DNA of 64,000 nucleotides from Escherichia coli 042. GTDB lineage: Bacteria; Pseudomonadota; Gammaproteobacteria; Enterobacterales; Enterobacteriaceae. The stretch lies in the NCBI RefSeq assembly GCF_000027125.1, contig NC_017626.1. One strand, given 5' to 3'. Made by a program: the position numbers and the translations under genes. The notes under the pieces were generated by a model that was not told the DNA's origin, did not search any database, and saw only the letters and a list, made by a program, of their open reading frames with translations. Shown here piece after piece: positions 2,471-60,665 of this stretch (positions are counted from its first letter, which is position 1; every line of letters begins with the position of its first letter).

Positions 2471-3494
2471 AACCCAGTACCTCTACTTTTACATGGTGTT
2501 CCTGCAGCCAGGCAATGGCGGCTTGCGTATCTTGTTGTGTGCCGTGCATTTCAGTCAGCATGATGCCGAACTTAACGCCACCGGCGTAATCCATCTGCGC
2601 GCTAATAATGTTGTTGTTGACGTTGAAACGACGCGCGGTTTCAGAAAGCAGTGGGGCATCGACCGATTGACCGGTAAACTCCAGACGCAGCATCGGCACG
2701 CAGTCAGTGAATGGCTCCGCTTGCAGACGCTCCTGATAATCTTCCGGGATATCCAGATGCAGGGTCGACTGAATAAACTTCTGCGCCAGCGGCGTTTTCG
2801 GATGCGAGAACACTTCACTTACCGTGTCCTGCTCGATCAGTTCGCCATTACTGATGACCGCCACGCAATCACAAATGCGCTTCACAACGTCCATTTCGTG
2901 GGTGATCAACAGAATCGTCAAACCCAGACGGCGGTTAATGTCTTTCAGCAGTTCGAGAATAGAACGTGTCGTTGCCGGGTCCAGCGCGCTGGTGGCTTCA
3001 TCACACAGCAATACTTTGGGATTGCTGGCTAATGCACGGGCAATCGCCACACGTTGTTTCTGCCCACCGGAAAGATTCGACGGGTAGCTATCATGCTTAT
3101 CGCCAAGACCAACCAATGACAGCAATTCCGTCACGCGACGTTTGATCTCGTCTTTCGGTGTATTGTCCAGCTCCAGCGGCAGAGCCACGTTGCCAAAAAC
3201 AGTACGCGAAGAGAGCAGGTTAAAATGCTGGAAAATCATACCAATCTGGCGGCGAGCTTTGGTCAACTCGGATTCTGACAGCGTGGTCAGTTCCTGTCCA
3301 TCGACCAGCACGCTACCCTCGGTTGGGCGCTCCAGCAGGTTTACACAACGTATAAGCGTACTCTTACCCGCGCCTGAGGCACCGATAACGCCATAAATTT
3401 GCCCAGCTGGCACATGCAGGCTGACGTTGTTCAACGCCTGGATGGTGCGGGTGCCCTGGTGGAACACTTTGGTGATATTCGAAAGTTTTATCAT
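2463..3494 (-). CDS. metN: D-methionine ABC transporter ATP-binding protein MetN
   Basis: 343 aa; Walker [13 protein letters not shown] signature LSGGQKQR, Walker [12 protein letters not shown]; stop overlaps the metI start by 8 bp. Confidence 0.93.
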
Positions 3495-3576
3495 TGATTA
3501 TTTATTATCGTCATTAAGTTAGTCGTGGCATTTCGAATGCCTGAAACGGGCAACGCCGTCAATGAAATGGATGTTA

Positions 3577-3600
3577 AGGCATCCAGACGTCTAAATCAAT
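3577..3600 (-). promoter_or_regulatory. Candidate MetJ operator (met box) in the metN promoter region
   Basis: Perfect AGACGTCT octamer at 3585..3592 flanked by related octamers, about 90 bp upstream of the metN start. Confidence 0.45.
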
Positions 3601-3681
3601 CAGGTTTATGCGAAGAGCACTTTCTTGCAGGTCGAAACATGCGATACTAGCGTCACATGCCTTATTAAGGAGCTATAAAAG

Positions 3682-4254
3682 GTGGCGAAGAGCGTACCCG
3701 CAATTTTTCTTGACCGTGATGGCACCATTAATGTCGATCACGGCTATGTCCATGAGATCGATAACTTTGAATTTATCGACGGTGTTATTGACGCCATGCG
3801 CGAGCTAAAAAAAATGGGCTTCGCGCTGGTGGTAGTCACCAACCAGTCTGGCATTGCTCGCGGTAAATTTACTGAAGCACAGTTTGAAACGCTGACCGAG
3901 TGGATGGACTGGTCGCTGGCGGACCGCGATGTCGATCTGGATGGTATCTATTATTGCCCGCATCATCCGCAGGGTAGTGTTGAAGAGTTTCGCCAGGTCT
4001 GCGACTGCCGCAAACCACATCCGGGGATGCTTTTGTCGGCACGCGATTATTTGCATATTGATATGGCTGCTTCTTATATGGTGGGCGATAAATTAGAAGA
4101 TATGCAGGCAGCTGCTGCGGCGAACGTGGGAACAAAAGTGCTGGTGCGTACGGGTAAACCTGTTACGCCTGAAGCAGAAAACGCGGCGGATTGGGTGTTA
4201 AATAGCCTGGCAGACCTGCCGCAAGCGATAAAAAAGCAGCAAAAACCGGCGTAA
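3682..4254 (+). CDS. gmhB: D-glycero-beta-D-manno-heptose-1,7-bisphosphate 7-phosphatase GmhB (HAD family)
   Basis: 190 aa ORF with HAD motif FLDRDGTIN; sits immediately upstream of the rrnH promoters. Confidence 0.9.
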
Positions 4255-4297
4255 TGATTAAAAGATGAGCGGTTGAAATAAAAATGCATTTTTCCGC

Positions 4298-4325
4298 TTG
4301 TCTTCCTGAGCCGACTCCCTATAAT
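4298..4325 (+). promoter_or_regulatory. rrnH promoter P1
   Basis: -35 TTGTCT (4298..4303), 16 bp spacer, -10 TATAAT (4320..4325), GC-rich discriminator GCGCC; matches rrn P1 architecture. Confidence 0.75.
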
Positions 4326-4407
4326 GCGCCTCCATCGACACGGCGGATGTGAATCACTTCACACAAACAGTCGGTTCGGTTGAAGAGAAAAATCCTGAAA
4401 TTCAGGG

Positions 4408-4619: not shown

Positions 4620-6161
<1,542 letters not shown>

Positions 6162-6229
6162 CCTTAAAGAAGCGTACTTTGCAGTGCTCACACAGATTGT
6201 CTGATGAAAATGAGCAGTAAAACCTCTAC

Positions 6230-6306
<77 letters not shown>

Positions 6307-6348
6307 AATTTGCACGGCAAATTTGAAGAGGTTTTAACTACATGTTAT

Positions 6349-6424
6349 GGGGCTATAGCTCAGCTGGGAGAGCGCCTGCTTTGCACGCAGGAGGTCTGCG
6401 GTTCGATCCCGCATAGCTCCACCA
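6349..6424 (+). tRNA. alaV: tRNA-Ala (TGC) in the 16S-23S spacer
   Basis: GGGGCTATAGCTCAGCTGGGAGAGCGCCTGCTTTGCACGCAGGAGGTCTGCGGTTCGATCCCGCATAGCTCCACCA, 76 nt. Confidence 0.97.
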
Positions 6425-6607
6425 TCTCTGTAGTGATTAAATAAAAAATACTTCAGAGTGTACCTGCAAAGGTTCACTGCGAAGTTTTGCTCTTTAAAAA
6501 TCTGGATCAAGCTGAAAATTGAAACACTGAACAACGAAAGTTGTTCGTGAGTCTCTCAAATTTTCGCAACACGATGATGAATCGAAAGAAACATCTTCGG
6601 GTTGTGA

Positions 6608-9513
<2,906 letters not shown>

Positions 9514-9606
9514 ACAACGCCGAAGATGTTTTGGCGGATAGAGAGAAGATTTTCAGCCTGATACAGATTAAATCAGAACGCAGAAGCGGTCTGATAAAAC
9601 AGAATT

Positions 9607-9726
9607 TGCCTGGCGGCCTTAGCGCGGTGGTCCCACCTGACCCCATGCCGAACTCAGAAGTGAAACGCCGTAGCGCCGATGGTAGTGTGGGGTCTCCCCA
9701 TGCGAGAGTAGGGAACTGCCAGGCAT
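9607..9726 (+). rRNA. rrfH: 5S ribosomal RNA (rrfH)
   Basis: TGCCTGGCGGCCTTAGCGCGGTGGTCCCACCTGACCCCATGCCGAACTCAGAAGTGAAACGCCGTAGCGCC...GGAACTGCCAGGCAT, 120 nt. Confidence 0.97.
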
Positions 9727-9778
9727 CAAATTAAGCAGTAAGCCGGTCATAAAACCGGTGGTTGTAAAAGAATTCGGT

Positions 9779-9855
9779 GGAGCGGTAGTTCAGTCGGTTA
9801 GAATACCTGCCTGTCACGCAGGGGGTCGCGGGTTCGAGTCCCGTCCGTTCCGCCA
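9779..9855 (+). tRNA. aspU: tRNA-Asp (GTC), distal tRNA of the rrnH operon
   Basis: GGAGCGGTAGTTCAGTCGGTTAGAATACCTGCCTGTCACGCAGGGGGTCGCGGGTTCGAGTCCCGTCCGTTCCGCCA, 77 nt. Confidence 0.97.
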
Positions 9856-40557: not shown

Positions 40558-42516
40558 ATGTCCTTAAAAGGTCTGCGCTTTACGCTGGAGATTGACGGCC
40601 AGGAGCCGGACACCTTTGCAGTGGTGCATTTCAGGTTAATCCAGAACCAGTCTTATCCGTTTGTGATGAGTGTGGATGTTGCCAGCGACTCTTTTATGCA
40701 GACGGCGGAGATGCTGCTGGAGAAGAAGGCGACGCTGACCATCTGGCAGGGCGTCATCCCGCTGCGTTATGTCACCGGCGTGGTGGCGGGTTTTGGCATG
40801 CAGGAGAACAATGGCTGGCAGATGCGTTATCACCTGCGTATTGAGCCGCCGTTATGGCGGTGCGGGCTGCGGCAGAACTTCCGTATCTTCCAGCAGCAGG
40901 ATATCCGGACGATATCGGCCACGTTACTGAACGAGAACGGCGTCACGGAGTGGACACCGCTGTTTTATGAGGACCATCCGGCGCGGGAGTTCTGTGTCCA
41001 GTACGGGGAAAGCGACCTGGCGTTTCTGGCGCGGTTGTGGGCGGAGGAGGGAATTTTCTTCTTTGAGCGGTTTGCGGCGGACAGTCCGGAGCAGAAGCTG
41101 ACGCTGTGCGACGATGTGGCGGGGCTGTCACAGGCGGGAGAGCTTCCGTTTAACCCGGACACATCGGCAGGAGCGGAGACAGAGTGTGTCAGTATGTTCC
41201 GTTATGAGGCGTATGTCCGCCCGTCGTCGGTGCAGAGCCAGGATTACACGTTTAAGGTGCCGGACTGGCCGGGGATGTATGAGCAGCAGGGTGAGAACCT
41301 GAACGGACAGCTGGAGCAGTATGAGATATTTGATTATCCGGGAAGGTTCAAGGATGAACAGCACGGCAAGGATTTCACGCTGTACCAGATGGAGAGCCTG
41401 CGCAGTGATGCGGAAAAGGCCACAGGGCAGAGTAATTCACCGAAGCTGTGGCCGGGAACGCGGTTTACGCTGACGGGGCATCCGCAGAAGATGCTGAACC
41501 GTGAATGGCAGGTGGTACAGAGTATTCTGTCAGGGGACCAGCCGCAGGCGCTGCACGGCAGCCAGGGGAGAGGAACCACGCTGGGAAATCAGTTAGAGGT
41601 GATACCGGCGGACCGGACGTGGCGTCCACGGCTGCAAAGCAAACCGAAGGTGGACGGGCCACAGAGCGCCATTGTCACCGGTCCTGCGGGAGAGGAAATC
41701 TTCTGCGACGAACACGGACGTGTGCGAGTGCAGTTTCACTGGGACAGGTATAACCCGGCAACGGAGGCGAGTTCATGCTGGGTGAGGGTGTCGCAGGCGT
41801 GGGCGGGGCCGGGATTTGGTAACCTGGCGATACCGCGCATCGGCCAGGAAGTGATTGTAGACTTCCTGAACGGCGACCCGGACCAGCCGATAATCATGGG
41901 GCGGACGTACCATGAGGACAACCGTTCGCCGGGGAGTCTGCCGGGGACGAAGACGCAGATGACGATACGGTCGAAGACCTATAAAGGAAGCGGCTTTAAT
42001 GAACTGCGGTTCGAGGACGCGACGGACAAGGAAGAAATTTACCTGCACGCACAGAAAAATATGCAAGTCGTTGTGCTGAACAGCAAGGATAAGCGGGTCA
42101 ACTATGACCGGACGGTCAGCATCGGGCATGATGAATCCCTGGTGGTGGCAAATGACCGGAAAGTGACGGTTGAAGGTAAACAGGACCATAAAACCACCAA
42201 AGACCATGTCAGCCTGACAGAGGGCAATCAGGGGCTGGAGGTGAAAGGCGATCTGGCACAGAAAATAAGCGGCGCGCTGGGTATCAGCGTACAGGGCGAT
42301 ATTGTTTTACAGAGCGACAGCAAAATCAGTCTGCGGGTGGGCGGTTCATTTGTGGTGATCCATTCCGGCGGCGTGGATATTAAGGGCGCGAAAATCAATC
42401 TTAACGGCGGAGGCAGTCCGGGAGACGTGATCCTGCCGATGCGCCCGGTGATCCTGAAAGCCGCAGCCGGAAGCGGGACAATGTTTGTGGCGCACTGCCC
42501 GAAGGAGGATAAGTGA
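40558..42516 (+). CDS. vgrG: T6SS spike protein VgrG (TssI)
   Basis: 652 aa; gp27-like N-terminus, gp5-like OB fold and repeat region; no obvious C-terminal effector extension. Confidence 0.92.
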   Translation: MSLKGLRFTLEIDGQEPDTFAVVHFRLIQNQSYPFVMSVDVASDSFMQTAEMLLEKKATLTIWQGVIPLRYVTGVVAGFGMQENNGWQMRYHLRIEPPLWRCGLRQNFRIFQQQDIRTISATLLNENGVTEWTPLFYEDHPAREFCVQYGESDLAFLARLWAEEGIFFFERFAADSPEQKLTLCDDVAGLSQAGELPFNPDTSAGAETECVSMFRYEAYVRPSSVQSQDYTFKVPDWPGMYEQQGENLNGQLEQYEIFDYPGRFKDEQHGKDFTLYQMESLRSDAEKATGQSNSPKLWPGTRFTLTGHPQKMLNREWQVVQSILSGDQPQALHGSQGRGTTLGNQLEVIPADRTWRPRLQSKPKVDGPQSAIVTGPAGEEIFCDEHGRVRVQFHWDRYNPATEASSCWVRVSQAWAGPGFGNLAIPRIGQEVIVDFLNGDPDQPIIMGRTYHEDNRSPGSLPGTKTQMTIRSKTYKGSGFNELRFEDATDKEEIYLHAQKNMQVVVLNSKDKRVNYDRTVSIGHDESLVVANDRKVTVEGKQDHKTTKDHVSLTEGNQGLEVKGDLAQKISGALGISVQGDIVLQSDSKISLRVGGSFVVIHSGGVDIKGAKINLNGGGSPGDVILPMRPVILKAAAGSGTMFVAHCPKEDK

Positions 42517-43355
42517 TGGAAACGGCACCCGTGCAGTACGCCATTGTGGATGGCGCTGTGGAGGAAGGATTGCTGGATTTTCTGAACGAGGTGAATCCCC
42601 CGCACTGTTGTCTGTATGCAGAACCCATACAACTGGATCTGGTCGCGCTAGCCCCCTATCTCGTGGAAGTCGTTCCGGAGGTTGAAGCATGGCTGAGTGT
42701 TAAGGCGTCGCCATGGGGAATATATCTGACTTCTGAGTCATCCATGCGTGAGCTACAGCAACACTTCAGACGTTATCTGTGGGTTAGGATCCCCGAACAG
42801 GAGAAACCTGTTCTCATGCGATTTTATGATCCCCGGAATATATGGGTATTAGTGGAAGTTCTGACCCCCCGCCAGCGTCTTTCTTTTATCAGTCCCGTCA
42901 GACAGCTAAGTACCCGTTATGGTGAAGAATGTCGTGAGGATAATTTTTCTTCCGTCCGTCCCGCAGAAACTATGAATATAAGGGCAGAACGGCCATCACA
43001 ACTGACGCTGAGTTACAGACAATATAGCCAACTGGAACGAAAGGCACGGGATAATTATCTTGATATATTATCTGCATTTATCGAAGAAAATGTAGATAAA
43101 AACGGATGGGATGATTCATCAAAAGCTGAATCATCCCGAATTCTGGCAGAAGATTATTTCTCTTTTTGCCAGTCATTAAATATAGCAGATGATCGTTCCG
43201 TCAGAACAATGACGCTTATATTACTGAAAAAAAATATAATCGATCTCAGATATATTCCGGATGACTGGTATGAACAACTCAGCAATCAGTCATACCCGGG
43301 ACATATTCGGGTACATGAACTTGCACAACAGGAACTGGGATTTATCCCACAATAA
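42513..43355 (+). CDS. DUF4123-family T6SS effector adaptor/chaperone (Tap/Tec-like)
   Basis: 280 aa; N-terminal QYAIVDGAV motif characteristic of DUF4123; start overlaps the vgrG stop by 4 bp. Confidence 0.7.
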   Translation: MMETAPVQYAIVDGAVEEGLLDFLNEVNPPHCCLYAEPIQLDLVALAPYLVEVVPEVEAWLSVKASPWGIYLTSESSMRELQQHFRRYLWVRIPEQEKPVLMRFYDPRNIWVLVEVLTPRQRLSFISPVRQLSTRYGEECREDNFSSVRPAETMNIRAERPSQLTLSYRQYSQLERKARDNYLDILSAFIEENVDKNGWDDSSKAESSRILAEDYFSFCQSLNIADDRSVRTMTLILLKKNIIDLRYIPDDWYEQLSNQSYPGHIRVHELAQQELGFIPQ

Positions 43356-43376
43356 AAAGACAAACGGATAGATTAT

Positions 43377-44948
43377 ATGACATCTCCATCTTCGACAGCC
43401 GGAAAGCCCTGTGTGGAATGCGGCATTCCTGATCCATGTATTTTTGATGTTATTAGTGATTTTCCAGAGGCCGGCGAGAAACATTTCTGGTCAAAAGAAG
43501 GAGTGGCGCGTTTTAAGCTACTGGATGATGGTTCCGGATGTGATGGTATAATTACCATTACCTACCAGTGCGATAAAAGTGGAACACATGAGGCATGGTT
43601 AGAGGAAGAATCAGAAAATAATCATAAGATACTGCAACCTTTCGGAATACCTAATAAGGTCACTTTGGATGATAACTTGTCTGAAGGTGAAATAATTGCT
43701 ATGGGTACATTTCGAGTACCATGGGATTATTTGGGGGCAATATCCTCTCCACTTAAGAATCATTATGAACCTGCCCATTATTCAGTCAGAATTGACAGTT
43801 GTTACGAATGTGGCAATTATGTTGAAATTGATGTTTATCCTACAGTGGAAATTAGGTTTACTACAGGGTTCAGCTATGAGATTTCGTCATCAAAACAGAC
43901 GAGAACAGTAAAAGAGCGGCGTGACGAAAGAATAAAAGCCAGGGACGCAATGGAGAACACCAAGCCCAGGGATAAAAATAAACTCCGTAGCGGCTGGACA
44001 AATACCACTGCTGAGTTTGAGTGGATAAACAAGACTTCCCTGACTGTCGATTTTGGCGTAAAAATAGCTAATGTTGAACACACAAGTGAATATGAAAAAG
44101 AGATAAAAAAACTTCGACAAACAAAGCAACTGGAACAGATAGGAAGAATTGACTCTCTGGTCAAGAATGTCAATAAATATTTTGCGCCAGATCCTGACAA
44201 TAATAATGGTACGCGCAAATATGCATTGTTCAGTGCAAAAATAGAACCCGTTAAACTGGGTATATCGTATGCCTATCAATATACCGATATCCAGGATGGC
44301 CCCTGTCATTTTTATGGTTTGTTTGGTGCCCCATTTTTTGAAGCGTCGTTCAGATTCGATATTATTTCATTTATATGTGCATATTGTAAAGTCGAGTCAT
44401 TGGTCAACAGATGTCGTGAATATCTCCGTAAAAACGGAGCCAGTGTTGAATGCTATATCGAGATTTCAGCGGAGATTAATCTTGATCTTGGCGCAGTATA
44501 CGCTGAAAAGGATAAAAAATGGGAGTTTAATGTAAAGGAAAGTAACATCAAGCTCGGTTTAAAAGGTGTGGTGAGTGCGACGTTTGAGGCGAATGTTTTT
44601 GTTGTACAACTGACCGCCGAAGCGACTGCCTCTATAGAAGCGAAAGCTGGATTTGGATTTGATTCACATGATGACGGACTGGACCTAGCATTATTTCATG
44701 ACGGCATTAAAGGGAAGTTTGAATTTAAGATTGATGTGTCTCATGGTGAAGTTGATGAAAAAGGAAAGGGGAAGGAAAAGAGCGAAAAACCTGAGAAGAA
44801 AGATACCGTTGAGTGGCAGTTATGTGATCCTATGGAGGTAAAGGATTCACCATTACGGGTTAATTTATACGGTAAAGAACGCACTGTGGAGAAAAAAGTA
44901 ACACCGCCGAAGCCAGTGACAACGTGGACGATAGGTATGGATTATTAA
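43377..44948 (+). CDS. Hypothetical protein, candidate T6SS cargo effector of unknown activity
   Basis: 523 aa, no signal peptide, Cys-rich N-terminal third, Lys/Glu-rich C-terminal tail; directly downstream of vgrG and the DUF4123 adaptor. No recognisable catalytic motif seen by eye. Confidence 0.55.
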   Translation: MTSPSSTAGKPCVECGIPDPCIFDVISDFPEAGEKHFWSKEGVARFKLLDDGSGCDGIITITYQCDKSGTHEAWLEEESENNHKILQPFGIPNKVTLDDNLSEGEIIAMGTFRVPWDYLGAISSPLKNHYEPAHYSVRIDSCYECGNYVEIDVYPTVEIRFTTGFSYEISSSKQTRTVKERRDERIKARDAMENTKPRDKNKLRSGWTNTTAEFEWINKTSLTVDFGVKIANVEHTSEYEKEIKKLRQTKQLEQIGRIDSLVKNVNKYFAPDPDNNNGTRKYALFSAKIEPVKLGISYAYQYTDIQDGPCHFYGLFGAPFFEASFRFDIISFICAYCKVESLVNRCREYLRKNGASVECYIEISAEINLDLGAVYAEKDKKWEFNVKESNIKLGLKGVVSATFEANVFVVQLTAEATASIEAKAGFGFDSHDDGLDLALFHDGIKGKFEFKIDVSHGEVDEKGKGKEKSEKPEKKDTVEWQLCDPMEVKDSPLRVNLYGKERTVEKKVTPPKPVTTWTIGMDY

Positions 44949-45014
44949 GTGATATTACAGAAATTAAAAGTGAACAGTATAATGAGTATTTTCCCCTTTT
45001 GAGAGAGAATAATT

Positions 45015-46025
45015 ATGAAGGCAAAACATTTAATATCGGTTATTTTACTGTCAGGAGTTGTTATGGGAACTGGATTTTGCTCTAACGATAACCAGCAAAA
45101 AATTCGCAGTAAGTTTAATATTGAAGAGTCATATTGTGCCATTAAGACTAATGGCGTCCTCGGGTTCAGTAACCGAAGAAGTGCCTGGCGGGCAAATGGT
45201 GATTCAACCGGGGCCATATCCAGCACCAATGCCATGATGCTGATGGCGAATGGAGAAAATGAAATCAGTCTGGAGATTGGGGCATTAGGATGGTTTTCTG
45301 ACAAGCCTGCCAGTATGGAAGAACGGGGGCGTTTTTTTCCAAAAGCAGGATGCAGCCTGGATTTGGTTCGTTTTATTAAACAGGAGGAAACGCTGCTTTC
45401 TTCAATAAAAGTGACCATCAACCAGCAGGGCATACCTGAAGCCCGGCCAGACAGCGTGCATCCCGTTATCCGGAAAGAGATTTTGGCTGAGCAGGCGGAG
45501 CCAGGATTTATTGATCCAGATTATTTTGATGAAACCTATTTCCCGAAAGGGATGAAGGTGTATCAGTTCACTCAAAAAGTTACCGTGACAGGGCTTCCTG
45601 AATGGGCCTGGACGCGGGCAACCCCCTATACCGGAAGCGACGAGCAGTTACGGAAGTTAAAAGCCGCCTATACCGAAATGGCAAGCATCATCAGTAGCCG
45701 GGACAGGGCACGTCTGAAAGCTTATAACAAAGAGGCGCTGAAGGCATGGTCAGCCACAACCGGTGACTCTGAGGATGACATATTACTCTCACTCTTCTCA
45801 AAAGATAATGTGGAGGGAGGGAAAGCCAGAATGCAGCCCATCAGGTGGGACGATTATGCCGTCCGGGTTATGAATGGTGGACGTATGGTGCAGCTATATA
45901 ATAAATCGAAACCAATATATTCCCCACTGACTTACCGTTTTACAGATGAAAGTGGTGAAGAGCGTATGGGGTATTACGCTCCGGTATTTTCGCTGATTGA
46001 TGGTCAGTTTATCCCTGTTACTTGA
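45015..46025 (+). CDS. Hypothetical exported protein, candidate cognate immunity protein
   Basis: 336 aa with N-terminal signal peptide (MKAKHLISVILLSGVVMGTGFC); immediately downstream of the candidate effector. Confidence 0.5.
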   Translation: MKAKHLISVILLSGVVMGTGFCSNDNQQKIRSKFNIEESYCAIKTNGVLGFSNRRSAWRANGDSTGAISSTNAMMLMANGENEISLEIGALGWFSDKPASMEERGRFFPKAGCSLDLVRFIKQEETLLSSIKVTINQQGIPEARPDSVHPVIRKEILAEQAEPGFIDPDYFDETYFPKGMKVYQFTQKVTVTGLPEWAWTRATPYTGSDEQLRKLKAAYTEMASIISSRDRARLKAYNKEALKAWSATTGDSEDDILLSLFSKDNVEGGKARMQPIRWDDYAVRVMNGGRMVQLYNKSKPIYSPLTYRFTDESGEERMGYYAPVFSLIDGQFIPVT

Positions 46026-46337
46026 TTAACCTGTTGGGCTACAAATCAGGATGTCCGGTAAGGTGATTATTACTGAGTTAAGCACCTTACCGTTTTTTAA
46101 ATTTTTTGTCGCTGATATTCCAGACAGGAAAACAATATGCCTTTAGCTGCCAGATTAAACGACAAAGGTACCGGCACAGGGAAAGATCACGTAACGCTGC
46201 TTTTTTGTACTAAATAATTCGCATTTTATGTTTAAAATTTGAGATATTCCTCATTACCTGAGGCTGTTTTTTATTACTTATACATGATCAAATACTCCTT
46301 ACATAATTAAGGGGAACAAAATGGAACTTAAAAATTG

Positions 46338-47262
46338 ATGGAACATATTTCTGTTATTCCCGATTACAGACAAGCCTGGAAAGTGGAACATAAATTGTCG
46401 GATATTCTACTGTTGACTATTTGTGCCGTTATTTCGGGTGCAGAAGGTTGGGAAGATATAGAGGATTTTGGGGAAACACATCTCGATTTTTTAAAACAAT
46501 ACGGTGATTTTGAAAATGGTATTCCTGTTCACGATACCATCGCCAGAGTTGTATCCTGTATCAGTCCTGCAAAATTTCACGAGTGCTTTATTAACTGGAT
46601 GCGAGATTGCCATACTTCAGATGATAAAGACGTCATCGCAATTGATGGAAAAACGCTCCGGCACTCTTATGACAAGAGTCGCCGCAGGGGAGCGATTCAT
46701 GTCATTAGTGCGTTCTCAACAATGCACAGCCTGGTCATCGGACAGATCAAGACGGATGAGAAATCCAATGAGATTACAGCTATCCCAGAACTTCTTAACA
46801 TGCTGGATATTAAAGGAAAAATCATCACAACTGATGCGATGGGTTGCCAGAAAGATATTGCAGAGAAGATACAAAAACAGGGCGGTGATTATTTATTCGC
46901 TGTAAAAGGAAATCAGGGGCGGCTTAATAAAGCCTTTGAGGAAAAATTCCCACTGAAAGAATTAAATAATCCAGAGCATGACAGTTACGCAATGAGTGAA
47001 AAGAGTCACGGCAGAGAAGAAATCCGTCTTCATATTGTTTGCGATGTCCCTGATGAACTTATTGATTTCACGTTTGAATGGAAAGGACTGAAGAAATTAT
47101 GCGTGGCAGTCTCCTTTCGGTCCATAATAGCAGAACAAAAGAAAGAGCCAGAAATGACGGTCAGATATTATATCAGTTCTGCTGATTTAACCGCAGAGAA
47201 GTTCGCCACAGCAATCCGAAACCACTGGCACGTGGAGAATAAGCTGCACTGGCGTCTGGACG
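46338..47262 (+). CDS. ISAs1-family transposase (H-repeat-associated protein), exon 1 of intron-interrupted gene
   Basis: Matches the intact copy at 49523..50659 up to ...[14 protein letters not shown] 1 nt shorter A-run than in copy 2 removes the MELKKL leader, so the start shifts to the ATG at 46338. The ORF-track tail [10 protein letters not shown] is intron-encoded read-through. Confidence 0.75.
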
Positions 47263-49153
47263 GTGTGCCGCAGGAACACAAGATAGCTGCATAAGGATAC
47301 GCAGTTAGCTTTTGTATAAGCTCATAAAGAGATGGTGGAAGGCCCACCGGGATCGGCTGTCGGAAGCAGATTCCAAACCACTTCATGCTGCTGTGGTAAA
47401 GAGCCATGGTAGTGAGCGATGAAGTAAAGCGTGAGTGAAAACTCAGCAGGTAAGATACTCATGAGACGAGTGAACCCGAACCCATGTTGACGCGTCGTAA
47501 ACCAGAGACTGACATCAAAACCGAAGGGGCGTCCAGCCTTCGGGATAAGTCTGCGAGTGAATTCCGAATGCTGCGCAGACGGTGTCCGGCGTAAAGTGGG
47601 CGTGACGGAGTATCAGGCTCTTCCTGGGAACTGCGGGAACCTGTCGTTGTGATGATAAGGGAGAAATGCAAGTCACTGAATTGGCGAGCATGAAAGTACC
47701 GATGCACAGCACAGGGACGGAGCCGTTCGTAGTAGTGATGAAGCTTCTGTAATGGAGGTGGAGCGAAGGGGCGGCATCAGACAGTCTTTGGACAGTGTTC
47801 AACTGAACATGTTCAGGAGGAGACAATGACAAAGACAAAAGCGTTTAACATTGATAAGTCACTGGTGGTCAGCGCGTACAGGCGAGTGAAGACCAGTGCA
47901 GGCGCGGCGGGAATTGATAAGCAATCGCTGGCGGACTTTGATAAACGGTTAGTTGATAATCTGTACAAAATCTGGAACCGACTTTCTTCAGGAAGTTATT
48001 TCCCACCGGCAGTGAAAGCGGTGGCAATTCCGAAGAAATTGGGTGGAGAGAGAATTCTGGGTATCCCGACAGTCAGCGATCGTATCGCGCAGACGGTGGT
48101 AAAACTGGCCTTTGAGCCACAGGTTGAGCCACATTTTCTGGCAGACTCTTACGGCTACAGACCGAATAAATCGGCACTGGATGCTATAGGGGTAACGCGT
48201 AAGCGTTGCTGGTATTACGACTGGGTACTGGAATTTGACATCAAAGGGCTGTTCGATAACATCCCGCACGAACTGATAATGAAAGCCGTGGACAAACACA
48301 ATCCGGCCCGGTGGGTAAAATTGTATATACAGCGGTGGCTGACAGCGCCGATGGTGATGTCAGACGGAGAAGTCAGAGCACGAACAATGGGAACGCCGCA
48401 GGGAGGTGTCATAAGTCCGTTGCTGGCAAACCTGTTCATGCATTATGTGTTTGATAAATGGCTGGCAAAATATTATCCGAAAGTGCCGTGGTATCGATAT
48501 GCTGATGATGGCATTTTGCATTGTCACAGCGAAGCAGAAGCGACTGAAATGCGAGAAGTATTACGCAAAAGATTTAGCGAATGCGGACTGGAAATGCATC
48601 CGGAGAAAACGCGAGTTATCTACTGCAAAGATGGAAGCCGGAAGGGTGATTATGAACATACCATGTTCGACTTTCTGGGGTACACATTCAGGCGACGCGT
48701 AGTAAAGAACGTTAAGCGAAACAGTCTGTTTGTAAGTTTTACCCCCGCAGCGAGCAAATCAGCGCTAAAGGCAATGCGTCGGGAAATCAAAGCGACAGGG
48801 ATAAGGAAAAGAGTGGATTTAAGCATTGAGCAGATAGCGAAATGGATAAATCCAAAACTGAATGGCTGGATAAATTATTACGGGCGATATACCTGTTCGG
48901 AATTATACAGCGTGTTCAGATATATCAATAAAGCACTGGTGAGGTGGGGGCGTAAGAAATATAAAATGCTCAGCCGATACAAGACAAGAGCCTCAAAATT
49001 TCTGGAAGAAATGGCGAAGCGAAGTCCACAGTTGTTTGCCCACTGGCGTCTGAAGATGAGAGGCGGACTTGTTTGATGGGAGCGGTATGAGCCGAGAGGT
49101 TCACGTACCGTTCTGCGAGAGGCTGCGGGGGAGGTTCCTGCGGCCTACTCACC
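47263..49153 (+). mobile_element. Group II intron (about 1.9 kb) inserted in the transposase gene
   Basis: Insert begins GTGTG (GUGYG consensus), contains the RT/maturase ORF in the position of domain IV, has a domain V-like hairpin (GAGCGGTATGAGCCGAGAGGTTCACGTACCGTTC, about 49080..49114) and ends just before the exon 2 sequence seen in the intact copy. Boundaries are good to about 1 nt. Confidence 0.8.
47826..49076 (+). CDS. Group II intron-encoded reverse transcriptase/maturase
   Basis: 416 aa; RT motifs including YADD ([11 protein letters not shown]) and a C-terminal maturase (domain X) region. Confidence 0.88.
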
Positions 49154-49347
49154 TGGTAATGAATGAAGACGACTGCAAAATAAGAAGAGGAAATGCAGCA
49201 GAATTATTTTCAGGGATACGGCACATCGCTATTAATATTTTGACGAATGATAAGGTATTCAAGGCAGGGTTAAGACGTAAGATGCGAAAAGCAGCCATGG
49301 ACAGAAACTATCTGGCGTCAGTCCTTGCGGGGTGCGGGCTTTCGTAA
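49154..49347 (+). CDS. ISAs1-family transposase, exon 2 (C-terminal 64 codons)
   Basis: Encodes [63 protein letters not shown], nearly identical to the C-terminus of the intact copy; joins exon 1 in frame. Confidence 0.75.
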
Positions 49348-49378
49348 TCTTTCCCTGGATGTGAAAAGCAGCTGCGGA

Positions 49379-50669
49379 CAGGGAAAGATCATCAGAAGTA
49401 CACTTTTTGTACTAAACAATTCGCATTTTATGTTTAAAAATTGAGATATTCCTCATTACCTGAAGCTGTTTTTTATTGCTTATACATGATCAAATACTCC
49501 TTACATAATTAAGGAGAACAAAATGGAACTTAAAAAATTGATGGAGCATATTTCTATTATCCCCGATTACAGACAAGCCTGGAAAGTGGAACATAAATTA
49601 TCGGATATTCTACTGTTGACTATTTGTGCCGTTATTTCTGGTGCAGAAGGTTGGGAAGATATAGAGGATTTTGGGGAAACACATCTCGATTTTTTGAAGC
49701 AATATGGTGATTTTGATAATGGTATTCCTGTTCACGATACCATTGCCAGAGTTGTATCCTGTATCAGTCCTGCAAAATTTCACGAGTGCTTTATTAACTG
49801 GATGCGTGACTGCCATTCTTCAGATGATAAAGACGTCATTGCAATTGATGGAAAAACGCTCCGACACTCTTATGACAAGAGTCGCCGCAGGGGAGCGATT
49901 CATGTCATTAGTGCGTTCTCAACAATGCACAGCCTGGTCATCGGACAGATCAGGACGGATGAGAAATCTAATGAGATTACAGCTATCCCTGAACTTATTA
50001 ACATGCTGGATATTAAAGGAAAAATCATCACAACTGATGCGATGGGTTGCCAGAAAGATATTGCAGAGAAGATACAAAAACAGGGAGGTGATTATTTATT
50101 CGCTGTAAAAGGAAACCAGGGGCGGCTAAATAAAGCCTTCGAGGAAAAATTTCTGCTGAAAGAATTAAATAATCCAGAGCATGACAGTTACGCAATTAGT
50201 GAAAAGAGTCACGGCAGAGAAGAAATCCGTCTTCACATTGTTTGCGATGTCCCTGATGAACTTATTGATTTCACGTTTGAATGGAAAGGTCTGAAGAAAT
50301 TATGCGTGGCAGTCTCCTTTCGGTCAATAATAGCAGAACAAAAGAAAGAGCCCCAAATGACGGTCAGATATTATATCAGTTCTGCTGATTTAACCGCAGA
50401 GAAGTTCGCCACAGCAATCCGAAACCACTGGCACGTGGAGAATAAGCTGCACTGGCGTCTGGACGTGGTAATGAATGAAGACGACTGCAAAATAAGAAGA
50501 GGAAACGCAGCAGAATTATTTTCAGGGATACGGCACATTGCTATTAATATTTTGACGAATGATAAGGTATTCAAGGCAGGGTTAAGACGTAAGATGCGAA
50601 AAGCAGCCATGGACAGAAACTACCTGGCGTCAGTCCTTGCGGGGAGCGGGCTTTCGTAATCTTGCCCTG
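49379..50669 (+). mobile_element. ISAs1-family (H-repeat) insertion sequence, copy 2 (intact), in tandem 21 bp after copy 1
   Basis: Inverted repeats CAGGGAAAGATCATC and TTCGTAATCTTGCCCTG at the ends; 1291 bp. Confidence 0.8.
49523..50659 (+). CDS. ISAs1-family transposase (H-repeat-associated protein), intact
   Basis: 378 aa, [50 protein letters not shown]...; DDE-type H-repeat transposase. Confidence 0.88.
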
Positions 50670-50778: not shown

Positions 50779-51282
50779 ATGGTAGATATTGTCGAGGCCG
50801 ATAAAACGGATATTTATTTCATTCAGGAGAGTGTTTATGGCAAAATCGGGTTGCCAGCTTTTGGTAATACAATAGGACCATCCGCACAGCAAGTTGTTAA
50901 AAAGGTATTCGCTGTCGTTAAAGAACGAGATAAGACACATGCAAAACAGAGATTATTGTTGGAATATAATGGTAACAAACTCTGGATGAATGCTATTGAT
51001 GGCAGTGAAGCTATCCTACCAACAGAATTTTCTAAGCGATACGAACTTTCATTATTTAATACTACTAATTTTGGAGAAGATCCTTTTCCTGATGTTAATT
51101 TATATAATAATATGAAATCAAGTTTTTTTGTAAGGTTTGGTGGAACATCCCATCCCGAGGCTTGGGCTATTTATAATGCAAGTACGAAAGAGGTTAAATA
51201 TATAGAAACTGCAAGAGAAATTGATAAAATATTCAGTGATTTTAACTTGAGTGGTACATTGCCAATTCACATTGGTCGATGA
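50779..51282 (+). CDS. Hypothetical protein (no signal peptide), AT-rich
   Basis: 167 aa ORF just right of the IS pair; no recognisable motif; may correspond to the small ORFs that sit between yafT and yafF in E. coli K-12 (unverified). Confidence 0.4.
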   Translation: MVDIVEADKTDIYFIQESVYGKIGLPAFGNTIGPSAQQVVKKVFAVVKERDKTHAKQRLLLEYNGNKLWMNAIDGSEAILPTEFSKRYELSLFNTTNFGEDPFPDVNLYNNMKSSFFVRFGGTSHPEAWAIYNASTKEVKYIETAREIDKIFSDFNLSGTLPIHIGR

Positions 51283-51348: not shown

Positions 51349-51861
51349 ATGAATAAACGGATTGAATGTGTTATGTTAAAAATAAGTTTATACGTAATAA
51401 TATTGTTATTTTCCTTTCAGATTAGTGCAGCCATTACTAGCAAGGAAAGTGAGGTTGTTTCACCATTATTAATGGATGTTAATTCTTCACTAACAATGGA
51501 AAATATTTCTGAATTATCCACATCATCGGAACCATCGCAACAGGGGGTATTTCCTGTAATATGTACTCGACTTCATCCTGGCTCCGTAATGAAACGCCAG
51601 TTATTAACCGGCTGGGGGCCTGTTTTTATAATTGGTGATGATCCTTTTTCTCTGCGCTGGATGAGTGAACATCTGGAGATCCTTAAATCGCTAAATGCCC
51701 TTGGTTTGGTTGTTAATGTTGAATCAGTAGAACGAATGGAGGTATTACAGCAGCGGGCTGATGGGTTATTGTTATTGCCAGTTATCTGCGATAATTTCGT
51801 GCAAACTCTGCAATTAAATGCTTATCCGGTATTAATCACAGAGATGGAAATATCACAATGA
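51349..51861 (+). CDS. Hypothetical exported/membrane protein
   Basis: 170 aa with N-terminal hydrophobic signal (MLKISLYVIILLFSFQISAA); AT-rich; identity not resolved. Confidence 0.4.
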   Translation: MNKRIECVMLKISLYVIILLFSFQISAAITSKESEVVSPLLMDVNSSLTMENISELSTSSEPSQQGVFPVICTRLHPGSVMKRQLLTGWGPVFIIGDDPFSLRWMSEHLEILKSLNALGLVVNVESVERMEVLQQRADGLLLLPVICDNFVQTLQLNAYPVLITEMEISQ

Positions 51862-51887
51862 TTAATAACATAATTACTGCAAATAAT

Positions 51888-52102
51888 ATCGTAATTTTGA
51901 AAATGGTAATCCTGTTCACGGCACCATAATTAGAGTTATGTCTTGTATCCGTTCAGTATAATTTCACGAATGCTTTATTAACTGGATGCGAGATTGCCAT
52001 TCATCAAATGATAAAGACGTCATCGCAATTGATGGAAAAGCGCTTCCACACTCCTATGATAAAAGTGGTCGCAGGGGAGCGGGCTTTCGTAGTCTTAGCC
52101 CG
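51888..52102 (+). pseudogene. yafF: Internally deleted ISAs1-family (H-repeat) remnant, yafF-like pseudogene
   Basis: Matches transposase codons roughly 55 to 118 ([35 protein letters not shown]) fused at a GGGGAGCG microhomology to the last about 20 bp of the IS right end (GGCTTTCGTAGTCTTAGCCCG). Confidence 0.75.
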
Positions 52103-56841: not shown

Positions 56842-56976
<135 letters not shown>

Positions 56977-58810: not shown

Positions 58811-59569
58811 ATGTCCTTCATGTCTTCGTTCTTTCACGGCAGATTTCTGCATCCAGGCGTGTTTTCGTTATGCGTTTTGCTCCCTTTACTCGCCAGCGCC
58901 ACCACATCACATATCTCTTTCAGCTACGCCGCCCGCCAGCGGATGCAAAACCGTGCGCGTTTATTAAAACAGTACCAAACCCATCTGAAAAAACAGGCCA
59001 GCTATATTGTGGAAGGCAATGCCGAAAGCAGAAAGGCGCTGCGCCAGCACAACCGCGAACAGATAAAACAGCATCCAGAATGGTTTCCTGCGCCGCTCAA
59101 GGCGAGTGACAGACGCTGGCAGGCGCTGGCGGAGAACAACCATTTCTTAAGCAGCGACCATCTGCACAACATCACCGAAGTGGCGATTCACCGCCTGGAG
59201 CAGCAGCTTGGTAAGCCTTACGTCTGGGGCGGCACGCGGCCCGATCAAGGCTTCGACTGTAGCGGGTTGGTTTTTTATGCCTACAACAAGATCCTCGAGG
59301 CGAAGCTCCCGCGCACGGCCAATGAGATGTATCACTACCATCGGGCAACGATTGTGGCGAATAACGACCTGCGCCGGGGAGATTTGCTGTTTTTCCATAT
59401 TCACAGCCGTGAGATTGCCGATCATATGGGCGTGTATCTGGGAGACGGTCAGTTTATCGAGTCGCCGCGCACCGGGGAAACCATTCGGGTAAGTCGGTTA
59501 GCTGAACCTTTCTGGCAGGATCATTTTTTAGGCGCGCGCAGGATTTTGACGGAAGAGACGATTTTGTAG
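58811..59569 (+). CDS. yafL: NlpC/P60-family peptidase lipoprotein YafL
   Basis: 252 aa; NlpC/P60 catalytic region (DCSGLVFYAY with catalytic Cys, downstream His). Confidence 0.88.
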   Translation: MSFMSSFFHGRFLHPGVFSLCVLLPLLASATTSHISFSYAARQRMQNRARLLKQYQTHLKKQASYIVEGNAESRKALRQHNREQIKQHPEWFPAPLKASDRRWQALAENNHFLSSDHLHNITEVAIHRLEQQLGKPYVWGGTRPDQGFDCSGLVFYAYNKILEAKLPRTANEMYHYHRATIVANNDLRRGDLLFFHIHSREIADHMGVYLGDGQFIESPRTGETIRVSRLAEPFWQDHFLGARRILTEETIL

Positions 59570-59650
59570 GACGGATAAGGCGTTCACGCCGCATCCGGCA
59601 ATAGTGCACCGATGCCTGATGCGACGCTGCCGCGTCTTATCATGCCTACG
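59570..59650. repeat. REP pair (BIME) downstream of yafL
   Basis: GGACGGATAAGGCGTTCACGCCGCATCCGGCA and GATGCCTGATGCGACGCTGCCGCGTCTTATCATGCCTAC. Confidence 0.85.
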
Positions 59651-60243: not shown

Positions 60244-60665
60244 TTGTGCGCGGATGCCTGATGCGACGCAGGCGCGTCTTATCATGCCTACAAACTTGTG
60301 CCGGATCGGTGGGCCGGATAAGGCGTTCACACCGCATCCGGCAATTGTGCACCGGTGCCTGATGCGACGCTGGCGCGTCTTATCATGCCTACAAACCTGT
60401 GCCGGATCGGTGGGCCGGATAAGGCGTTCACACCGCATCCGGTAATTGTGCACCGGTGCCTGATGCGACGCTGGCGCGTCTTATCATGCCTACAAACCTG
60501 TGCCGGATCGGTGGGCTGGATAAGGCGTTCACACCGCATCCGGCAATTGTGCGCAGATGCCTGATGCGACGCTGACGCGTCTTATCATGCCTACAAACTT
60601 GTGCCGGATCGGTAGGCCGGATAAGGCGTTCACGCCGCATCCGGCAATTGTGCACCGATGCCGGA
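60244..60665. repeat. Tandem REP/BIME array of about four 101 bp units downstream of rayT
   Basis: TGCCTGATGCGACGC recurs at about 60255, 60357, 60458 and 60559 (101 to 102 bp period); each unit holds two REP palindromes in opposite orientation. Confidence 0.88.

Follow-up and report, generated by a model that had tools for sequence, protein, structure and literature searches.

A group II intron, most probably E.c.I2, in an ISEc1 transposase gene of Escherichia coli 042

Related introns and identity of the insert

Group II introns residing within insertion sequence (IS) elements represent the usual situation in bacteria. Ferat, Le Gouar, and Michel were reportedly the first, in 1994, to describe group II introns of E. 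coli that reside in mobile DNA, one of them being located in H-rpt. Among the introns compiled by Leclercq and Cordaux (2012, PMC3522654), E.c.I2 homes to the Rhs IS, listed there as 'Rsh IS (= ISEc1-5)', its target being credited in that publication to Dai and Zimmerly (2002, RNA 8:1294). In strain UMN026, the copy E.c.I2-1 was described as a class D intron of 1891 bp located in an Rhs region at 269264-271154, representing the only copy of this intron in the genome, in which four homing sites are free (PMC3522654, Table 2). The same publication is inconsistent on one point, as its Methods section places E.c.I1 among the IS-homing introns, whereas the Tables and the Results name E.c.I2.

Site-specific homing into IS transposase genes was likewise described for E.c.I4, which occurs in IS629, IS911, ISEc16, and ISEc31 of E. 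coli and Shigella (PMC3522654). However, E.c.I4 belongs to another intron class (class A), targets the IS3 family, and reaches up to 15 copies per genome, whereas the intron analyzed here is single-copy. Another counterpart is RmInt1 (Sr.me.I1) of Sinorhizobium meliloti, the prototype of class D (IIB3), which resides in the transposase gene of ISRm2011-2 and follows a lagging-strand-primed pathway (PMC3035460). Both RmInt1 and the intron analyzed here are ~1.9 kb long, reside in an IS transposase gene, specify an intron-encoded protein (IEP) with reverse transcriptase (RT) and maturase domains lacking the D/En domain, end in CC, and have their sense strand on the lagging-strand template. They differ in the host IS family (ISAs1 in the present case), the target sequence, and the species. 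Moreover, RmInt1 features a CCCC run across its 3' splice site, where the present intron reads CC|UGG, and it is experimentally mobile and multi-copy, in contrast to the single locus found here.

The window analyzed in this study, a stretch of 64,000 nucleotides from the chromosome of E. coli 042 (contig NC_017626.1), extends from an rRNA operon across a vgrG/Rhs-type island to the genes yafV, ivy, and fadE. Promoter-like sites were as frequent as expected by chance (10 versus an expected 8.8), and terminator-like sites roughly twice as frequent as expected (9 versus 4.1). An insert of 1891 nt, located on the plus strand at 47263-49153, starting with GUGUG and ending with CUACUCACC, interrupts a transposase gene of the ISAs1 family. 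With a probability of roughly 0.93, this insert represents a complete copy of E.c.I2, predicted to consist of a class D (IIB3-type) ribozyme and an RT/maturase devoid of the En domain, at the characteristic ISEc1/H-rpt homing site of this intron. The name was assigned by length, locus, host IS, and class rather than by direct alignment. The class D label was taken from the entry for E.c.I2 in Table S2 of PMC3522654, the protein in the window fitting this class by its En-less make-up.

Compared by published description, and not by sequence alignment, no difference between E.c.I2-1 of UMN026 and the window intron was detected; both have a length of 1891 bp, the Rhs IS (ISEc1-5) as host, and a single copy, with free sites left. 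Furthermore, a sequence 100% identical to the window intron was found in strain 118UI at 269263-271153 within the same gene neighborhood, its coordinates lying within 1 nt of those published for E.c.I2-1 in UMN026. A review table also places E.c.I2 together with RmInt1 by its pair of intron termini (PMC8283771). The combination of intron and target is already known, being catalogued as E.c.I2 and annotated by RefSeq, and nothing in the arrangement is new. A literature search combining group II intron, H-rpt, and Escherichia coli returned no paper.

Insertion site and ribozyme anatomy

The interrupted ISEc1/H-rpt element occupies positions 46177-49357 on the plus strand (a 1290 bp IS plus the 1891-bp intron) and is followed after 21 bp by an intact ISEc1 copy (49379-50669, plus strand, 1291 bp), the divergence between the two copies being ~4%. 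Direct reading of the interrupted copy yields ...CTGGACG, followed by the intron from 47263 (GTGTGCC...) to 49153 (...CTACTCACC) and by TGGTAATG, whereas in the intact copy the uninterrupted site CTGGACG|TGGTAATG was aligned at 50459-50465|50466. Across 40 nt on the 5' side and 20 nt on the 3' side, the flanks of the site do not differ between the two copies; the homing site in the intact copy is thus identical, lies in the same orientation, and is unoccupied. If the boundary is moved by a single base to the left or right, the intact site is no longer matched, and the 1891-bp boundaries are therefore unambiguous. The splice junction splits a Val codon behind its first base (GAC G|TG). The initial annotation was correct in describing an insertion of 1891 bp exactly after CTGGACG that begins with GTGTG and falls after the first nucleotide of a codon.

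At the 5' end, GUGUG (47263-47267) agrees with the consensus GUGYG. The 3' end deviates from the AY rule, because the intron terminates in CC (49152-49153). An alternative end at ...CAC (49152), which satisfies this rule, was considered and rejected, as it leaves an extra C and causes a frameshift in the spliced mRNA; moreover, a 69%-identical relative also finishes with CAC plus a pyrimidine. A CC terminus in place of AY is also described for the class D intron RmInt1 (PMC4238363). The CC terminus is a known variant and provides no ground for excluding the insert from the group II introns.

Rfam covariance models identified two parts of the ribozyme within the insert, both above the gathering threshold, on the correct strand and in the correct order. 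The model RF01999 (group-II-D1D4-2), representing a part of domain I, matched over its full length (1-118) at 47334-47451 on the plus strand with 105.5 bits (gathering 36, E = 1e-20). The full model RF00029 (Intron_gpII), covering domains V and VI, matched at 49078-49153 with 58.3 bits, compared with a gathering score of 40 (E = 7e-09 with respect to the whole window). Both matches are far above chance level. The alignment to RF00029 and the predicted fold place domain V at 49080-49113 (plus strand), where a hairpin of 34 nt contains the catalytic triad AGC and a bulge of 2 nt, and domain VI at 49117-49150 (plus strand). In domain VI, one single A is bulged; it is located at 49147, 6 nt upstream of the final base of the intron, and represents the branch point. 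The domain V-like hairpin noticed near the 3' end in the initial annotation is hence supported by an independent model; the absence of ribozyme domains, named there as an observation that would speak against an intron, was not what the Rfam search found.

The last seven nucleotides of the 5' exon (CTGGACG, 47256-47262, plus strand) represent the intron-binding site IBS1, being the perfect complement of an intron loop with the sequence CGTCCAG. This loop, the exon-binding site EBS1 (CGUCCAG, 47530-47536, plus strand), forms the terminal loop of a hairpin with the stem 47521-47527/47537-47543, and all seven base pairs with the exon positions -7 to -1 (CUGGACG) are complementary. For EBS2, the sole perfect Watson-Crick 5-mer found was GACGC at 47489-47493 (plus strand), which may pair with the exon positions -11 to -7 (GCGTC, 47252-47256). 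This assignment is tentative, and a search for covariation yielded no matching counterpart of the candidate in the related intron described below.

The relative was found in strain 13E0780 (L002, 3450-5336) and shares 69% nucleotide identity with the window intron over nt 54-1890. It also resides in H-rpt/ISEc1-type elements of Rhs regions, shows the same start (GUGUGCCG), and is nearly alike in domain VI and the 3' end (CUACUCACU versus CUACUCACC in the window intron). However, its insertion point lies behind nt 15 at the left end of the IS, whereas the window intron is located at nt 1087, and its annotated IEP is longer (440 aa versus 416 aa). The loop homologous to EBS1 reads CAUGAUGAUAC in the relative and GCGUCCAGC in the window intron, the former being able to pair with AUCAUC (6/6) or AUCACG (5/6) at the site where the relative is inserted. 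Since the loop changes with the target across the two introns, it behaves as an exon-binding site should. Based on the wording of PMC3522654 ('Rhs IS at another position'), and thus by description only, the relative was assigned as E.c.I9-like. The E.c.I9-like intron is present as a full copy in 13E0780, and 5' fragments of it were detected in ~2000 E. coli genomes.

Intron-encoded protein and interrupted transposase gene

Within domain IV, the insert encodes a protein of 416 aa (47826-49076, plus strand), its open reading frame being directly preceded by the Shine-Dalgarno sequence GGAGGAG. Pfam detected the domains RVT_1 (residues 68-288, 2.7e-39) and GIIM (residues 314-388, 7.3e-16), and the YADD motif is located at residue 225, in agreement with the RT/maturase of 416 aa originally proposed. 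The NCBIfam model TIGR04416 (group II intron reverse transcriptase/maturase) matched with 412 bits at a cut-off of 300, and the top PDB matches are RTs of group II introns. The exact protein was found on at least 1000 public contigs, where it is named group II intron RT/maturase. No HNH or En (DNA endonuclease) domain was detected by Pfam, and the protein terminates 28 aa past the GIIM domain. IEPs without En are described for the classes A, C, D, E, and F (PMC3552965).

An assignment of this RT to a retron, a DRT defense system, or another non-intron RT, with the RNA-like features on its flanks being coincidental, was also considered, clustering with such RTs having been named in the initial annotation as a finding that would contradict an intron. 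Matches to the models for Drt3a (72 bits, cut-off 200), Drt2, and the retron St85 RT were indeed obtained, all of them below threshold; such matches are expected from the common RT fold. In contrast, TIGR04416 clearly exceeds its cut-off, and the protein carries the GIIM maturase domain. Two independent group II models of Rfam match the flanks above gathering in the correct order and on the correct strand, and the insert is placed exactly in a known target, the IBS1 of which is complementary to EBS1. As all retron and DRT models remained far under their cut-offs, this assignment was rejected and is regarded as extremely improbable.

The interrupted element is bounded on the left by the inverted repeat CAGGGAAAGATCA (46177-46189) and on the right by ...TAATCTTTCCCTG (49345-49357), both read directly; of the terminal inverted repeats, the left one is CAGGGAAAGATCA, and the right one is the complement of CAGGGAAAGATTA in the interrupted copy and of CAGGGCAAGATTA in the intact copy. 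When aligned with the intact copy by blastn, nt 26-1087 of the IS correspond to 46202-47262 (96.4%) and nt 1085-1291 to 49151-49357 (97.1%). The 3' exon of the transposase gene extends over 49154-49347 (plus strand), its first base T representing the putative IBS3. In the intact copy, the transposase gene is located at 49523-50659 and encodes 378 aa, the product matching the ISAs1-family model NF033564 with 413.9 bits (cut-off 70). The spliced form of the interrupted gene is ~96% identical to it at the DNA level, and PGAP names the transposase at an identical locus 'ISAs1-like element ISEc1 family transposase'. This model match and the RefSeq annotation of 172 genomes corroborate the view that one mobile element is nested in an ISAs1-family transposase gene of another.

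The host gene carries a further lesion. An A-run at 46330-46334 (plus strand) comprises five instead of the six A residues of the intact copy, and this 1-nt deletion shifts the frame of the canonical transposase ORF. Because one A is missing, translation from the canonical start (ATG 46321, with a Shine-Dalgarno sequence on its 5' side) yields MELKN-stop, the frameshift falling at codon 5/6, after codon 4. The stop codon TGA overlaps an internal ATG at 46338 (TGATG/UGAUG) that lacks its own ribosome-binding site. The deletion was also found in three other strains (L001, L004, and L005), and PGAP notes an 'internal stop' for the interrupted transposase gene.

The initial annotation had stated that splicing restores an in-frame transposase of 372 aa and that transposase expression depends on splicing. 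The 372-aa product is obtained from the spliced gene only if translation starts at the internal ATG 46338, and the statement does not hold for the canonical 378-aa ORF. Likewise, splicing is necessary for expression and yet insufficient: given the frameshift at codon 5/6, it alone would not restore the normal protein. The interrupted IS copy is probably a pseudogene, as judged from its reading frame.

Mobility, distribution, and relationship to the host element

Based on established group II biology and on the class D prototype RmInt1 (PMC3035460, PMC4238363), the intron would be carried in the IS transcript, and the protein encoded in domain IV would bind the intron RNA and aid lariat splicing. 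The resulting ribonucleoprotein could reverse-splice into the DNA strand bearing CTGGACG|T and, without an endonuclease, would use the nascent lagging strand at the replication fork as a primer. The GC skew is positive on the plus strand of the window, and the sense strand of the intron is therefore the lagging-strand template. By analogy, this orientation fits the preference of the RmInt1-type pathway (PMC3035460).

Complete E. coli genomes were analyzed by megablast. The full 1891 bp were found at an identity of at least 99% in 172 out of 5426 genomes (~3%). Among the matches listed, all are annotated as ltrA, group II intron RT/maturase, between two ISAs1 transposase fragments. The 3' context, comprising the intron end, the 3' exon, the 21-bp spacer, and the second ISEc1, is identical in 171 of the 172 carriers, and the four loci inspected all represent the vgrG-yafV locus. 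In total, the intron ORF occurs at 174 places in the 172 genomes; one of the two genomes with two ORF places is probably SCU-105, in which the intron is split by an IS3-family element. None of the copies was located on a genuine plasmid, the sole full-length 'plasmid' match being a 4.9-Mb chromosome record. A query joining the 3' end of the intron to the 3' exon and the beginning of the following ISEc1 copy matched a median of 8 places per E. coli genome. The context common to 171 of the 172 carriers, the single locus, and the empty identical site nearby point to one ancestral insertion that was presumably passed on by vertical descent and at present retrohomes little or not at all, and argue that the copy may be at best weakly active.

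The main alternative, compatible with the identity as E.c.I2, is that the intron is an immobile relic that remained intact in sequence, no longer splices or retrohomes, and is inherited together with the vgrG-yafV island. We consider this a real possibility, although short of an even chance. It agrees with the uniform 3' context in all carriers but one and the likeness of the four inspected loci, with the emptiness of the adjoining ISEc1 homing site despite its identity over 60 nt and its same orientation, and with the excess of query-matching places (median 8 per genome) over intron ORF places (174 in 172 genomes); UMN026, with its one copy and 4 free sites (PMC3522654, Table 2), presents a similar picture, and poor transcription or translation of the frameshifted host IS copy is conceivable. 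However, the 416-aa ORF is intact in those genomes whose annotation was read, as are the ribozyme motifs checked (GUGUG, EBS1, domain V, and domain VI). The near-100% identity among the carriers cannot alone separate a recent clonal origin from selection, and in class D introns such as RmInt1, poor splicing does not preclude mobility (PMC3035460).

For RmInt1, which ligates less than 1% of its exons in vivo, a limitation of IS dispersal by the intron was proposed (PMC4238363, PMC3035460). That the intron in the window might similarly restrain its host IS, inefficient or low-fidelity splicing linked to the CC 3' end keeping the amount of transposase low, is an idea borrowed from RmInt1 in ISRm2011-2 and appears unlikely for this copy. 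The transposase ORF is indeed interrupted in phase 1, with in-frame stops shortly past the junction, and the CC end is shared with RmInt1. However, the IS copy is already disabled by the frameshift at codon 5/6, which is also present in other strains, and splicing therefore cannot be the sole gate. Furthermore, the intact transposase gene of the element beginning 21 bp downstream could act in trans, and four consecutive Cs are not present around the 3' splice site (CC|UGG). Conversely, the intron itself could be actively kept from spreading, the identical site 2.2 kb away being empty in ~170 genomes, within an IS that would be doubly silenced; this was judged to be very unlikely. Too little intron transcript from the frameshifted host IS is one possible cause of such restraint, and a diversion of splicing to unproductive products by the RmInt1-like CC end is another. 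If it were true, the copy bearing both intron and frameshift would have been kept because its ends are still mobilizable in trans by the adjoining copy, and the locus would represent a small natural case of mutual control between intron and IS, and no new kind of element.

Regarded as a copy of E.c.I2, the intron is of value for correct annotation and as a worked example of class D anatomy with coordinates. With respect to annotation, the phrase 'splicing restores the transposase' is false for the canonical ORF because of the additional frameshift in the host transposase gene. The occurrence as one orthologous insertion, the lack of plasmid copies, and the empty identical site in the adjoining element fit the published view of bacterial group II introns as being subject to selection-driven extinction.

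Surroundings of the tandem insertion sequences

Upstream of the ISEc1 pair, a gene group at 41263-46025 was delimited by correspondence with L001, a comparison locus from another E. coli strain; it comprises a truncated T6SS vgrG, then a DUF4123 gene and a pair of hypothetical genes, and represents a typical T6SS effector/adaptor cluster. The GC skew of the 40-48 kb bin of the window was unusually high (0.156). A complete rRNA operon is encoded on the + strand (4620-9852), including the 16S rRNA, two tRNAs, a StyR-44 element (6492-6600), the 23S and 5S rRNAs, and a further tRNA; it was used only for orienting the window relative to replication. Moreover, five matches to the Rfam family naRNA4 (REP/BIME-type) were detected at 56846-56923, 59569-59646, and 60312-60591, three of them being packed in a tight array within the last of these intervals.

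ISEc1 copies and a further ISAs1-family remnant

Two ISEc1/H-rpt elements are arranged in tandem and in the same orientation at 46177-50669, being separated by a spacer of 21 bp (49358-49378). The two copies are approximately 4% divergent, and their differences include one block at IS nt 14-25, located just internal to the left inverted repeat. A third, degraded ISAs1-family piece lies immediately ahead of yafV (51885-52081) and is 84% identical to ISEc1 nt 323-519; PGAP lists its counterpart in sister genomes as a pseudogene interrupted by an internal stop. Two small AT-rich ORFs (50779-51282 and 51349-51861) occupy the interval from the intact ISEc1 to this fragment; they look like island cargo, and sister genomes carry the annotations 'hypothetical protein' and 'integrating conjugative element protein' for them.

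Traces of a related class D intron

At its left end (46177-46200), the intron-bearing IS copy reads CAGGGAAAGATCACG|TAACG. Compared with the 5' exon of the E.c.I9-like class D intron in strain 13E0780 (L002), this end matches as far as GATCACG; the target region of this related intron was found in the window, where it is empty. Strain NCTC86 (L003) carries, at 2934-3110, approximately 165 bp of the related intron, derived from its 5' end. This piece resides at the same Rhs-yafV locus as the window intron; an H-rpt left end lies ahead of it, and a complete ISAs1 element follows directly. A 103-bp part of the fragment, which corresponds to nt 54-156 of the intron in the window with 86% identity, was detected in 2028 out of 5426 E. 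coli genomes. E.c.I9 fragments in E. coli were reported previously (PMC3522654), and the 5' fragments residing in about 2000 genomes are probably the same ones.

Nested insertion in strain SCU-105

In strain SCU-105 (L005), an IS3-family element (3170-4398) is inserted in domain I of the same intron as that of the window, resulting in three levels of nesting, namely an IS within an intron within an IS.
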